Virus record (IMG/VR): IMGVR_UViG_3300033485_000064
Coordinates: 1-29,016 of that record
Direction: 5' to 3' (one strand)
DNA from: a virus
Lineage: Duplodnaviria > Caudoviricetes
DNA: 29,016 nucleotides
The position numbers and the translations under genes are program-made. Under the pieces are notes generated by a model. The model was not told where the DNA came from. It made no database searches and saw only the letters and a program-made list of their open reading frames with translations. This document shows, piece by piece, positions 2,308 through 15,988 of the stretch (positions within the stretch are counted from its first letter, which is position 1; each line of letters begins with the position of its first letter).

Positions 2308-3564
2308 TCAATCCACACGGTTTTCATCTTTGTACTCCGTCCATGATACTTCTTTGCCGTTTATTTTGATTGAGTCAATTTGTGTATAGTCACACCATCG
2401 CTGGATTATTACTTGGGCGTATTGAGTTGATAACTCTATCATTCTGCAATTCCTATCTAAGTTTTCACAAGCCATCATAGTTGAGCCACTACCTCCGAAG
2501 AAGTCCATAATAATATCACCCTTATCTGATGATATTTTAATTTGGTTTTCAATCAATGCAATAGGCTTCATTGTAGGGTGCAACCCAGTTTCTCTACCTT
2601 CTTCAATGACTCTTGAATAATTTACGTCCTTTAATGCTCCATTCCATTTGGCACTTCTTCTAAATAACAATAAAAATTCAATATCAGGGCGGTGACTTCC
2701 TCCAATAGGGATTGCATTTGGCTTTTTCCAAATTAGCGGATTGAATGATATTTTATTTTCTTTGGCCCAGTTAAGATAATCAGGCAATAAGTCTTTGTTG
2801 CAAAAAACATAGGCGTTAAAATTATTCTTTTCAAATATAGTTGGAAACACTTTCAAAAAGTCGAGAGGGTTAAAATCTGCAATAAATTCGATATCTTTGC
2901 CTTGCTTTTCTAGCCCTTTTCCTATGTCTCCTTTACATCCGCCCTCTGTTTGTATCAAGTATGGAGGGTCAGTGAACACCATATCAGCCTTTTTGCCATC
3001 CATCAAACGCTTAACATCTTCCTCTTTCGTACTATCCCCACAAAGCAACCGATGCGCTCCAATCTCGATTAAGTCACCCAATTTAATCACTGGATTATCT
3101 ACCACTTCTGGAACGTCATCTGCTTTGCTTTCGTCGATGATTGCTTCTAGTTCACCATCTAAGTTAATATCCATCTCCTCTAACTCTTCGGGAGTGAAGC
3201 CGATTAAATCTAAGTCATAGCCTACGTCGTGAAGCTCTTGCATTTCGATAGCAAGCATTTCTTCATCCCAACCACTGTTCAATGCGAGTTTATTATCAGC
3301 AATTATATAAGCCTTCTTCTGAGCCTCTGTGAGGTGTGATAGCTCAATCGTTGGTACTTCATCAAGTCCGAGTCGTTGCGCCGCCATAACACGCCCGTGA
3401 CCCGCAATGATTCCATTTTGTCCATCTGTTAAAATAGGATTAGTGAACCCAAATTCTTTTATACTTGACATTATCTGTGCAACTTGCTCATCTGAATGCG
3501 TGCGACTGTTTCGTGCGTATGGCACTAACTCTTTGACCGATTTATAGACTATTTCTTGCTTCAT
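2308..3564 (-). CDS. ParB-like N-terminal domain fused to an N6/N4 DNA methyltransferase
   Basis: ParB motifs YARNSRTHS, IIAGHGR and ADNKL; MTase motif IV TDPPY, HPTMKP and motif I DFFGGSGST. Confidence 0.92.
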   Translation of the reverse strand: MKQEIVYKSVKELVPYARNSRTHSDEQVAQIMSSIKEFGFTNPILTDGQNGIIAGHGRVMAAQRLGLDEVPTIELSHLTEAQKKAYIIADNKLALNSGWDEEMLAIEMQELHDVGYDLDLIGFTPEELEEMDINLDGELEAIIDESKADDVPEVVDNPVIKLGDLIEIGAHRLLCGDSTKEEDVKRLMDGKKADMVFTDPPYLIQTEGGCKGDIGKGLEKQGKDIEFIADFNPLDFLKVFPTIFEKNNFNAYVFCNKDLLPDYLNWAKENKISFNPLIWKKPNAIPIGGSHRPDIEFLLLFRRSAKWNGALKDVNYSRVIEEGRETGLHPTMKPIALIENQIKISSDKGDIIMDFFGGSGSTMMACENLDRNCRMIELSTQYAQVIIQRWCDYTQIDSIKINGKEVSWTEYKDENRVD

Positions 3565-9175: not shown

Positions 9176-9285
9176 TTTCGCTCGAGTTTAGTTTCTTTAA
9201 TAGATTTAATCAATCCAACTGAGCTACGCCCAGTCATAAATACCATGATATAGCTAATTGTTAGTATGATATGGTATTCACTCAT
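9169..9285 (-). CDS. Small membrane peptide, 38 aa (MSEYHIILTISYIMVFMTG...)
   Basis: Manual translation; TAATG coupling; one hydrophobic segment. Confidence 0.55.
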   Translation of the reverse strand: MSEYHIILTISYIMVFMTGRSSVGLIKSIKETKLERKC

Positions 9286-9885: not shown

Positions 9886-9947
9886 CAAAAAATCCTTTCC
9901 GCTATTTCAGCAAACCAATTTTCAAGCTGTTGTAGTTTTTGTTTCAT
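9885..9947 (-). CDS. Short peptide, 20 aa (MKQKLQQLENWFAEIAERIF)
   Basis: Manual translation; AGGAG RBS; overlaps both neighbours. Confidence 0.5.
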   Translation of the reverse strand: MKQKLQQLENWFAEIAERIF

Positions 9948-10162
9948 AGCTGCTCTCCTAAATCTTCAAGCAAAATAGCTTTCAACTCATTACGGTTGAT
10001 ATTGCTATGTTTAGCTATTTTATTAAAAGCCGTTACGATTAGATCAACATAATCATCCATCGAGTCACGAAATTCTTTAATTTCATACTCTGCTTGTTTT
10101 TCGTTTTGTTCCATCTGCTTTTCATAGCGATTTAACGCTTCAGTATTCGCACATCTTTCCAT
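9944..10162 (-). CDS. Hypothetical protein, first ORF after the ncRNA cassette
   Basis: 72-aa ORF with strong SD AGGAGG. Confidence 0.75.
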   Translation of the reverse strand: MERCANTEALNRYEKQMEQNEKQAEYEIKEFRDSMDDYVDLIVTAFNKIAKHSNINRNELKAILLEDLGEQL

Positions 10163-10254
10163 CTCATCCTCCTATATTTTAGGGCTTTAAAACCCTTAAT
10201 ACAGTCAAGTTTATGTCATCTTGTTTGAATGGCTTGACTGTATTAAAAGCTTTA

Positions 10255-10357
10255 TGGTTGGGGGGATGGATTCGCACCACCATAATAGATATTCAAGTAC
10301 AATTATTCTCTATCATCCGCACTACACGGCTAGGCAATCTATAAACCTTTACACCCC
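10255..10357 (-). ncRNA. tRNA/tmRNA-like element ending in ACCA
   Basis: 5' GGGGUGUAAAGGUUU, inner stem AUAGAU/AUCUAU, T-arm GGUGG-UGCGAAU-CCAUC, 3' CCCCCAACCA. Confidence 0.5.
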
Positions 10358-10546
10358 GATATTTTATGACCTGCACCAACTAGCTAGGTTCGCCCCCGAT
10401 TACTCAGTGGTACGGTGCAGGAACTTTTTAGCTATGTTGTCTGAGCGCTTATCCTCGTTTAGTTTCCAAATATAGACTGCCATATCTTTCGACTTAGGAC
10501 TGCCTTGTACGTCTCAGGCATGGGCTTTCACCATCGTATTACTATC

Positions 10547-10612
10547 GCCTACGTCGGAGTCGAACCGCTCGGCTACCATTTCTGATAGTATGCAACCGTT
10601 ACATTTTAAGGC
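10547..10612 (-). ncRNA. Pseudo-tRNA / tRNA-like element
   Basis: Acceptor GCCU/AGGC, D-arm AUGUAACGGUUGCAU, arm CUAUCA-GAAA-UGGUAG, T-arm CGG-UUCGACU-CCG. No canonical 7-nt anticodon loop. Confidence 0.6.
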
Positions 10613-10807
10613 ATAATTAAAAGCTCTTTGAGTTGATATATACTAACTGCCGTCATGCACTTAGGACTTACTGACCGTTGCATATACCAACTTCAAAAGC
10701 TTTTTACTCAACAATTTAAATTCAAATAACTGCAAGATACCGCACACTCCACCTACTCGTGCCGATGAACTTTTTATTGATTCAGGTGATCTGTATCTTG
10801 TAGAACA

Positions 10808-10837
10808 ATTATAGACTAACTAAGCTTAATTAAGTAT
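10808..10837 (-). promoter_or_regulatory. Early promoter P2: ATACTTAATTAAGCT-N9-TATAAT
   Basis: Same 15-mer as P1 and P3; -10 at 10813-10808; predicted +1 near 10801 at the base of the first RNA stem. Confidence 0.8.
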
Positions 10838-10857
10838 AAAAGTGTTTTATTCTTTTG

Positions 10858-11184
10858 TTAATGACATTTAGCCATTAATCTATCCCACTCGTCATTGATA
10901 TATCCGAACTCTACCCCGCTACTTGTGGCTATCATTTCAATCCATGAGATATGATCGCTCATTTGTTTGCTATCTAATTTTGTGTAGCTTAATGGCTCTT
11001 GTCGCTCATCTCTTGGATATTTTAAATCAAGATATTTCAATAGATTACGGATAGACTCACTATGCACCGATGAAGTGCGAAATTTAAACTTTGGCTCTTG
11101 AAATTCAAGAACCACCCCTTCTTTTTTCAATTCAGGCAAAACGCACCCGAATATGAACTTTTGGAAGTTTTGGGATATTAGCAT
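10858..11184 (-). CDS. NinB/Orf-like recombination accessory protein (tentative; start 11184 or 11208)
   Basis: C-terminal SYTKLDSKQMSDHISWIE...GV resembles the NinB C-terminus; lies in the recombination module. Confidence 0.5.
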   Translation of the reverse strand: MLISQNFQKFIFGCVLPELKKEGVVLEFQEPKFKFRTSSVHSESIRNLLKYLDLKYPRDERQEPLSYTKLDSKQMSDHISWIEMIATSSGVEFGYINDEWDRLMAKCH

Positions 11185-12406: not shown

Positions 12407-12436
12407 ATAGTAACATTGTTTAGCTTAATTAAGTAT
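12407..12436 (-). promoter_or_regulatory. Early promoter P3: ATACTTAATTAAGCT-N9-TACTAT
   Basis: Same 15-mer as P1 and P2; extended -10 TGtTACTAT. Confidence 0.75.
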
Positions 12437-12451
12437 AAAGTGTGTTATGTT

Positions 12452-14126: not shown

Positions 14127-14920
14127 GCTATTTCTCCTTCAATCACATTTTGATTTCCAGCTTGTTGTCGCTTCATCTCTTGGACACGCTCGTAAGTTTC
14201 CATTGTTATATCCATTTTGCTTTTATGTGGCTCATACTTCTTTCCAGTACGCAAAGCGAATAGCCCTGCATATCCTCCAGCGATTGAAGCGTTTATAACT
14301 TCGGTTGTGTCCATGCCTAAACGGTTGAAATCTTCAAGCTGTTTAAATTGTTTTTTAATTGTCGTAGGTGTGAGAGGCTTTTTAATCTCTTTACGGTGTT
14401 GTACCCATTCATTCCATACGTCAGAAGAAATACAAGAAGGCAAAAATTGTGTTTCATTCGCCTTATTATTATACTTACCTTTACTAACCTCTCCTATACT
14501 ATCCTCTACTATACTACGCTGTCCCATGGACGTCCCATTGTCGTCCCGTGTATTTTCATCATGTTTTCGGTCTGCTCTATCACGTTTTTCAATTAGATTT
14601 ATATCGGGTAAAAGTTGCAACAATAGGTTCTTGTAAATGCTGTCTACCTTGCGATCTGAGCGTATTAAGTTATGTTCTTTCCAATCCGTAATGTGAGATA
14701 CTAAATCATCATTTAGCACCGTTACAAAGCCCTTAGCAACGAGAATTTTTAAGCTATCCTCTGATACTCCAAGTAACCGCATTACAGAAAATGCCTCTAC
14801 TATTCCGTCATCATCAGCACGTATACCTAAATGAAAATAAAATGACTGTGTTTCCAGTGGCATTTTAATAAATCTTGCACTATCAATTATCTTTTTTGCA
14901 AACATACGTCTTTCAGCCAT
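14123..14920 (-). CDS. Phage replication initiator / replisome organizer
   Basis: N-terminal MAERRMFAKKIIDS.RF..MP...Q..YFHL...ADDDG; C-terminal W.EW..HRKEIKKPLT...I..SI..GY.GLF domain. Confidence 0.85.
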   Translation of the reverse strand: MAERRMFAKKIIDSARFIKMPLETQSFYFHLGIRADDDGIVEAFSVMRLLGVSEDSLKILVAKGFVTVLNDDLVSHITDWKEHNLIRSDRKVDSIYKNLLLQLLPDINLIEKRDRADRKHDENTRDDNGTSMGQRSIVEDSIGEVSKGKYNNKANETQFLPSCISSDVWNEWVQHRKEIKKPLTPTTIKKQFKQLEDFNRLGMDTTEVINASIAGGYAGLFALRTGKKYEPHKSKMDITMETYERVQEMKRQQAGNQNVIEGEIA

Positions 14921-15730: not shown

Positions 15731-15803
15731 GTGTCTCAATCATCTATCATCAATCTTACGATTAAACTCTTAACGGTATTTCTACCGTGGATGATTGAGA
15801 CAC
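15731..15803 (-). ncRNA. C4-antisense-like three-stem RNA in the rha leader
   Basis: Perfect 14-bp closing stem (15731-15744/15790-15803) enclosing ACGGUA-GAAA-UACCGU and AAUC-GUAA-GAUU hairpins. Confidence 0.7.
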
Positions 15804-15823
15804 CGTTAAAAGTTTGTGAAAGC

Positions 15824-15851
15824 ATTATAAAACTATATTTCTTAATTGTAT
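15824..15851 (-). promoter_or_regulatory. Promoter of the rha/replication operon: ATACAATTAAGAA-N9-TATAAT
   Basis: Variant of the P1-P3 motif with the same spacing. Confidence 0.7.
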
Positions 15852-15853
15852 AT

Positions 15854-15884
15854 AAAAACGACGCTCTTTTATAAGAGGTTGTCG
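15854..15884 (-). terminator. Intrinsic terminator (sRNA and late/lysis operon)
   Basis: CGAC..CUCUU-AUAA-AAGAG.GUCG followed by UUUUU. Confidence 0.7.
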
Positions 15885-15956
15885 AAGGTATCGCCCTGAG
15901 ATGAAGCAGGACGATTGAGGAGGAGGTGAATAGATGAGTTGTCCTAGATAGGAACA
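15854..15956 (-). ncRNA. Predicted trans-acting sRNA with an anti-SD/anti-AUG seed
   Basis: Promoter immediately upstream; 5' hairpin; unpaired ACUCAUCUAUUCACCUCCUCCUCA; 9-bp hairpin with a G-U pair on this strand; intrinsic terminator. Confidence 0.75.
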
Positions 15957-15960
15957 GGTA

Positions 15961-15988
15961 ATTTTATAGCAACATAGCTTATATTAAG
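15961..15988 (-). promoter_or_regulatory. sRNA promoter: CTTAATATAAGCT-N9-TAAAAT
   Basis: Same TAAGCT-N9-(-10) architecture as P1-P3. Confidence 0.65.

Follow-up and report, generated by a model that had tools for sequence, protein, structure and literature searches.

Genes and features of the locus

The window, the whole 29,016-nucleotide stretch of DNA analyzed here, is a linear virus record of 29 kb that is 38% complete and carries every gene on the minus strand. Its genes encode a terminase, methylases, a single-strand binding protein, Gam-like, Erf and DnaD-like proteins, an antirepressor and an endolysin, and, as judged from gene size and order, tail proteins. A free-standing HNH homing-endonuclease-like gene (301 aa; positions 822-1727) separates the large terminase gene from its preceding neighbor. 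Because relatives of the window proteins were found in Campylobacteraceae assemblies, along with prophage-like regions encoding such relatives in 20 of 401 Campylobacterales genomes, the host of this phage is probably a Campylobacterales bacterium.

The locus of interest is a gene-free gap of 695 nt (10163-10857) that, according to a hand-picked gene list, is by far the largest in the window, the runner-up measuring 244 nt. The gap had previously been described, from the sequence alone, as the largest non-coding interval of the genome, which is borne out both by its size and by its minus strand, where no open reading frame exceeds 34 aa and none has a ribosome-binding site; the structural motifs listed in that preliminary description are all present where it had placed them. 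The second largest gap (15740-15983, minus strand) separates the lysis genes from the antirepressor gene, and the 100-nt segment at 15741-15840 had the strongest folding z-score (-8.5) among the 200 windows tested.

Transcription of the interval is predicted to start near position 10802, behind a promoter-like block (Table 1). Of the early promoter proposed previously, the TATAAT hexamer is present and the block is both repeated and kept in relatives, but a sigma-70 scan did not report this site. A near copy of the block precedes the Erf gene (12422-12448), and the related loci L006, L007 and L040 retain it; the repeated block probably represents a family of phage early promoters. Blocks with TTAAGC ten bases upstream of the -10 hexamer occur twice in the window and three times in L040, the further copies in L040 being located at 9215-9241 and 14882-14908.

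Of the genes upstream, Erf and Gam were assigned by PHROGs, and NinB is a language-model lead only (0.92-0.93) with no Pfam match; as annotated, the neighborhood is a lambdoid early recombination region. Downstream, homologs of the 72-aa gene stand behind a bare promoter in L006, L007 and L040 and behind a cassette in L121. A search of 250 genomes for the 72-aa protein gave no match and is uninformative because it also missed the known homolog in G303.

Table 1. Positions of the features in and around the gene-free interval of the window
Feature	Positions	Strand	Description
NinB-like gene	10858-11184	-	upstream of the cassette, following the Erf and Gam-like genes
Promoter-like block	10808-10850	-	TTAAGC at 10829-10824, TATAAT at 10813-10808
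M1	10731-10802	-	helices of 10 bp (closing) and 4 bp (inner); pseudoknot CACCU/AGGUG predicted
Closing helix CAAGAUAC/GUAUCUUG	10800-10793/10740-10733	-	motif of the preliminary description, confirmed
boxA-like 10-mer GUUAUUUGAA	10721-10730	-	directly 3' of the first hairpin
Stalk A1	10619-10704	-	basal box GCUUU/AGAGC under ~19 bp of stem; apex (10681-10643) exchangeable
Pseudo-tRNA	10547-10612	-	4-bp acceptor GCCU/GUAGGC, D-like arm, canonical T loop, no CCA
D4	10430-10544	-	multi-helix, GAAA hairpins, CCUAAG/UAUGG pair (10498-10480)
Type B stem CCUGCACC/GGUGCAGG	10370-10421	-	variable top
TL	10255-10358	-	acceptor of the tRNA-Pro type; three inner arms; CCA end; lacks a 7-nt anticodon loop
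Stalk A2	10189-10253	-	~22 bp, basal box GCUUU/AGGGU, starts on the CCA of TL
72-aa gene	9944-10172	-	no known family, GGAGG ribosome-binding site; first gene downstream of the cassette

Structured modules

Folding energies were compared with those of 200 shuffled sequences, a control for the modules that had been proposed earlier. The two long stems lie clearly beyond the shuffles (A1, z = -5.0; A2, z = -6.7; 0 of 200 shuffles in each case), the values for M1 and type B are borderline (z = -1.7 and -1.5), and the pseudo-tRNA, D4 and TL stay at the level of the shuffles (z = +0.2, +0.5 and -0.2); for the whole region, two computations gave z-scores of -1.8 and -2.0. What backs the weaker modules is that such units recur elsewhere. 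The last stem, previously put at 14 bp, is present with a length of ~22 bp (10253-10189).

The preliminary description could not match the region to a known RNA family, and neither did the Rfam covariance search, which covered the window, the region and 14 homologous or candidate loci and gave nothing for the modules of the window; the Rfam models of known self-cleaving ribozymes, in particular, did not match the window or the region. Against 50,697 phage records, BLAST with the region returned chance matches only, and a DNA search of 401 Campylobacterales genomes returned 5 matches, all short and located in or beside unrelated host genes. Mimicry of rRNA, considered because the start of M1 resembles the 16S 3' end and D4 and the type B stem are reminiscent of 23S rRNA, was rejected, as no module shows a likeness to the rRNA operon of genome G230 beyond that of shuffles. 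The cassette has no CsrA-type ANGGA sites and no match above the cut-off to Rfam CRISPR repeat families (best E-value, 7.5), and the single CRISPR array from 5 genomes, which need not include the true host, is unlike the modules by eye.

Module M1 has four members (in the window, L027, L113 and L121) with two invariant stretches, GAUCACC and AAAAAGUUCAUCGG. In their alignment, 97% of the cells are paired, a level that 0 of 500 shuffles attained and that dropped to 32-49% in slid controls, and 11 of 19 pairs change on both sides. The covariation that was looked for is thus present in M1, resting on four sequences and with four of the five pseudoknot pairs invariant: the closing helix differs among all four members, and two-sided changes occur at two pairs of the inner stem and at one of the predicted pseudoknot. 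A pattern search for M1 gave real matches in two of the seven genomes with any match (G230 and G303) and for one of eight matches in viral sequences (G403), and BLAST against plasmids gave chance matches only. The covariance model of M1, R1, recovered only its four training sequences in 48 sources and, when run on 150 genomes, G303 and a weak match in G437. This weak match, L133 (G437:C36:5145-5209), scores 27.6 bits with an E-value of 9e-4. The M1 copy of L113, from the G230 prophage, is enclosed by a stalk, with a tRNA-shaped unit and a further stalk behind it. L013 and L041 share a first module that is related to M1 but has a different core (GGAAUACAGC...CAUCGGUUCC...GGAAC), a second candidate new RNA family. 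Measured against Rfam, M1 itself is a new structured RNA family, although the supplement of PMC5737381 or newer motif lists could hold it.

The two tRNA-shaped units of the window are not decoding tRNAs: their loops measure 6 and 5 nt, the 6-nt loop of the pseudo-tRNA standing where an anticodon loop is expected, ARAGORN found no tRNA or tmRNA in the window, and RF00005 did not match. The cloverleaf of the pseudo-tRNA lies within 0.7 kcal of the minimum; neither it nor D4 has a diverged homolog, and both folds are therefore proposals. L027 contains a copy of TL that is 92% identical and has one two-sided change in the acceptor; in both the window and L027, the first 9 nt of TL equal those of the tRNA-Pro of G230. 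Its 3' end reads G-A-CCA in L027 and in the runs X5, X6 and X7 and A-A-CCA in the window, where the G before the discriminator is lost and the T loop is altered. Variants with other T arms occur in the same three runs; the T arm and acceptor vary, whereas the inner arms, which differ at 2 of 43 nt in run X7, are conserved. The earlier label of this unit as tmRNA-like does not hold, as its acceptor ends are closer to those of the host tRNA-Pro, with C1-G72 and A73, than to those of tmRNA. We take a tmRNA to have an Ala-type acceptor (GGGG..CUCCACCA) with G3-U70 and a tag reading frame; four host tmRNAs start with GGGG(C/A/G)UGAC and end with CUCCACCA, whereas TL starts with CGGGGUGUA and ends with CCCCAACCA.

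A tRNA score is still reached by units in L013 (46.7 bits) and L113 (43.1 bits), although their anticodon arms are broken. The L113 unit at 3102-3217 has a long insert between the D and T arms, an acceptor of ~9 bp and no CCA, and in L013 (1550-1625, minus strand, and 1690-1800), a tRNA whose anticodon loop has 6 nt follows the first module that is common to L041.

The CCUAAG/UAUGG pair of D4 is presumably an 11-nt tetraloop receptor. D4 recurs, 95-100% alike and with its 5' edge at 10537, in the runs X2, X4 and X5 (two studies), where it lies behind another neighbor; a pattern search detected it in none of the viral contigs and in 0 of 291 genomes. Stems related to type B and ending in GGUGUAGGUCA occur in L010, L012 and L027, and the type B stem itself follows other upstream neighbors in the runs X3 and X4.

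An optional and mosaic cassette

The interval is non-coding and optional, its frame is shared, and its modules are swapped between unrelated phages. At the empty site of L006, L007 and L040, the same promoter and first eight transcribed bases run straight into the ribosome-binding site that serves the 72-aa gene. The upstream protein of L006 and L007, which are identical at the empty site and may be one population, is 97% identical to that of the window, and the Gam-like protein of L040 is 95% identical; a contig from run X1 has the same joint, skipping 654 nt. Because the empty form keeps the 5' arm of the first helix, there are hints that it arose by loss of the cassette.

A comparable promoter and array were found in nine other elements, namely L010, L011, L012, L013, L027, L041 and the prophage-type G242, G230 and G303, the last three being regions in Campylobacterales genomes; the prophage with the G230 cassette is part of one 2.56-Mb contig. 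The number and order of modules vary, with up to seven per cassette, and L010, L012 and L041 have stalks with no tRNA-like unit. The phage G403, which contains L027, has other replication and tail modules, and of 30 window proteins tested, only the methylase, the YopX-like protein, the nuclease and the product of one small gene match it, yet its M1 and TL are 81% and 92% like those of the window, separated by a small gene and by modules other than those of the window. Small open reading frames intervene between modules in L010, L013 and L027. The one at 3212-3439 in L027 encodes a 75-aa protein of the crAss001_48 family (Pfam PF21825), and that at 4482-4646 in L010 a 54-aa protein with no family.

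Further exchanges were seen in public runs, including a contig in which the middle 437 nt are swapped for 79 nt; this evidence comes from short contigs and from loose ends no longer than 30 letters. None of the matching sequencing runs is listed as RNA, and X4 is labeled as probably DNA. Among 34 phage-type loci, an automated scan flagged 11 gaps, of which three (L095, L113 and L041, the last flagged on the opposite strand) were kept and eight were dropped as not cassette-like. The L113 cassette had no BLAST match, and no second full-length copy of the window cassette was found.

A shared frame of boxA-like element and stalks

Two elements missed by the preliminary description, a boxA-like 10-mer and a box at the base of the stalks, are the frame of the cassette. 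In the window, the 10-mer has one mismatch to GTTCTTTGAM of the host rrn loci, and its equivalent after the first hairpin of G242 is GUUCUUUGAC. The basal box has the consensus G[CU]U[UC]U paired with A[AG][AGU]G[CU]. Both motifs were defined with the cassettes already in view, and these ten were themselves chosen by matches and by eye, so the contrasts with background are descriptive: eight of ten cassettes contain a 10-mer with at most 2 mismatches in the first 130 nt (280 nt for L121), compared with 40 of 578 background windows (6.9%); the summed mismatches are 19, against 31.5 +/- 2.2 in shuffles (0 of 500); and the basal box is present in 12 of 28 long cassette helices (13 before removal of one overlap artefact) but in only 12 of 550 control helices. 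The cassettes lacking the 10-mer are L041 and L121. Reading the 5' arms of the stalks as repeated boxA elements was tried and discarded, the likeness being weak (4 of 28 compared with 30 of 437).

With at most 1 mismatch, only 6 of 26 host rRNA loci have the boxA string behind the pre-16S stalk, and only 13 of 26 leaders contain it, often as the stalk's 5' arm, GAUCUUUGA. This arm sequence equals the boxA of Bacillus subtilis, which binds NusB and lies directly behind a 5' hairpin, and rrn leaders have this order of hairpin and boxA (PMC13753749, in part). NusB and RNase III are each encoded by all three prophage hosts. The 10-mer is likely a boxA form of Campylobacterales phages.

The eight elements with stalks have 15 of them, 15-30 bp long (a second script listed 16, of which one artefact was dropped), with tops of 6-56 nt that are unrelated to one another. 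In run X5, an 88-nt apex replaces the 39-nt apex of A1 in the window. The upper stem of A1 is common to L011, L012 and L027, with two-sided changes in 2 of 10 pairs, which is not significant by pair counts (100 of 500 shuffles). A2 adjoins the upstream side of the next gene, other tRNA-type 3' ends precede it in the runs X6 and X7, and in several cassettes an A-type stalk is the final element ahead of the ribosome-binding site. The base of Campylobacterales pre-16S stalks is similar (CUUU/ARAG or CAUU/AGUG), and in Helicobacter pylori the rRNA stalks are cut by RNase III (PMC6582327, in part). A1 and A2 are predicted substrates of this enzyme, for which an irregular helix of ~12 bp per half-site is the minimal substrate (PMC8708148, in part), a size reached by the 15 stalks. 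Because RNase III of Escherichia coli has no strong sequence consensus (PMC8708148, in part), the conserved basal box may serve another protein.

In L113, repeated palindromic TTACTGTTACAGTAA sites (1735-1800 and 2870-2920) cover both divergent promoters of the G230 prophage and are likely repressor operators that control its cassette.

Proposed function and alternative readings

The anatomy of the cassette points to an early transcript, built like an rRNA leader, that is protected by Nus factors, cut by RNase III and processed into multiple RNAs, a reading that we consider probable. Host RNA polymerase would start near 10802, and NusB-S10 would load on the boxA-like 10-mer and either shield the 600 untranslated bases from Rho or help the stalks to fold, both being roles discussed for boxA and Nus factors (PMC4807359, in part). 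RNase III would then cut the long stalk hairpins, and tRNA-processing enzymes (RNase P) would trim the tRNA-shaped units, so that several small RNAs are released and, given that no minus-strand terminator was called in the region, the downstream genes acquire a new 5' end.

The released RNAs may serve as decoys or inhibitors of host RNA-binding defense proteins, with anticodon-less tRNA mimics perhaps occupying proteins that cut or sense tRNAs. An accessory counter-defense locus is suggested by the optional, fast-shuffled array in an early region. A processed cassette carrying anti-defense decoys is nonetheless a tentative proposal, prompted by context and held at that level because no target of the cargo was found. 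The preliminary description had offered a polycistronic precursor of decoy or regulatory RNAs as one of two options; the anatomy agrees with this, and the processing and the decoy role are putative. In its boldest form, which we regard as speculative and rather doubtful, the cassette would be a miniature, plug-and-play mimic of an rRNA operon that serves Campylobacterales phages as an RNA counter-defense island; host Nus factors and RNase III would mass-produce the shuffled decoys, such as anticodon-less tRNA-Pro mimics and M1, and each would be directed against a different host defense that senses RNA or cuts tRNA.

Alternatively, the cassette could act solely in cis, as a leader that enlarges on the lambda pL leader or the early RNase III sites of T7, with boxA and M1 tuning elongation, the stalks and tRNA-shaped units making or stabilizing mRNA ends for the early genes, and nothing acting in trans. 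Its placement downstream of an early promoter and ahead of the first ribosome-binding site in a lambdoid early gene context, the terminator-free minus strand, the A-type stalk that closes several cassettes, and the small open reading frames among the modules of L010, L013 and L027 are all compatible with such a leader. Yet L006, L007 and L040 have the same promoter and gene with no leader, up to seven modules in variable order are more than end formation requires, M1 shifts from the first position to the interior of a stalk, and apices are exchanged while stalks are kept, all of which makes this reading unlikely. If the cassette were instead a decaying phage tRNA array, with tRNAs and processing spacers turning into pseudogenes and tRNA-shaped units that have no current function, then the high tRNA scores of the L013 and L113 units with broken anticodon arms, the canonical-looking tRNA 3' ends at the TL position in the runs X6 and X7, and the lost G and altered T loop of the TL in the window would be readily understood. 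Such decay is improbable, given that the non-tRNA inner arms of TL are conserved and three variants retain G-A-CCA, that M1 covaries and is not tRNA-like, and that three cassettes have stalks with no tRNA-like unit.

In other phages, tRNA-associated HDV-like ribozymes free neighboring units, and M1 or D4 might cleave itself to the same end. M1 does have invariant unpaired bases and a pseudoknot, and in L113 it lies just upstream of a tRNA-like unit, but no Rfam ribozyme model matched, its helix order is presumably unlike those of the HDV, twister, pistol and hammerhead folds, and it is mostly the 5'-most element, where a cut would free little; self-cleavage therefore seems very improbable. The other option of the preliminary description, one large new RNA, ornate in the manner of GOLLD or ROOL and folding or perhaps oligomerizing as a whole, is already largely refuted, and we give it almost no credence. 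The length is similar (~620 nt), the context is of the prophage type, and there are tetraloops and a receptor motif mid-region, but the centroid fold does not pair the 5' and 3' ends, no Rfam family matched, and the whole cassette is missing from near-identical phages. Because the modules are exchanged, separately present or absent and reordered, with no second full-length copy found, the cassette is no integral GOLLD- or ROOL-like molecule.

The cassette also supplies one or more new structured RNA families (M1), a natural expression frame of stalks and cargo, and a likely phage form of boxA. Counter-defense of phages has nearly always been sought in small proteins, and a shuffled, optional, non-coding array points to an overlooked RNA layer that, if the decoy proposal is true, would be the RNA counterpart of anti-CRISPR gene clusters. 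The cassette is directly testable, as near-identical phages with and without it exist.

Comparison with known systems

The elements of the frame are each known from rRNA operons, lambda or T7; a shuffled phage RNA cassette of stalks and cargo is not described in the literature searched, which was largely without subscription journals. The genes for RNA C and RNA D of phage T4 lie in its tRNA cluster. These, too, are phage-made small RNAs with no assigned function (PMC9697503, in part), but they are set apart, by description, as fixed, late products of a lytic myovirus, whereas the cassette is shuffled, early and carried by lambdoid phages and prophages. GOLLD and ROOL resemble it as large non-coding intervals of phages and prophages near tRNA-like elements (PMC5737381 and 10.1101/2024.12.08.627333, both in part), but they are single, conserved, cage-forming folds, and their covariance models gave no match at E <= 5 in the window or E <= 10 in the region. 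The tRNA-Lys with which phage T5 counters PARIS is a precedent for a tRNA-type phage RNA as a possible counter-defense; it replaces the cleaved host tRNA in translation (PMC11464382, in part), whereas the cassette units, having no usable anticodon, could not stand in for it and would be limited to competition or inhibition.

The lambda pL leader combines the boxA-boxB of nutL with an RNase III hairpin ahead of N. The cassette likewise has a boxA near an early promoter and hairpins of the RNase III type before the first gene, as do the lambda nut sites (PMC4807359, in part) and the T7 R1.1 RNase III site (PMC8708148, in part) in their respective features. It differs in having many modules instead of one hairpin and no identified boxB/N pair, and, from both lambda and T7, in its tRNA-shaped units and in being dispensable as a whole leader.

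Unlike the bacterial rRNA operon, the cassette is phage-borne and optional and continues into protein genes, and its cargo measures 6-60 nt and is interchangeable, with no sequence likeness to rRNA. In both, however, a promoter is followed by a hairpin, a boxA or boxA-like 10-mer, long stalks enclosing a cargo, and tRNA-shaped spacers (PMC13753749, PMC6582327 and PMC4807359, each in part), and just as 16S rRNA lies inside its stalk, M1 lies inside a stalk in L113, the layout of G230 being a small copy of the operon.
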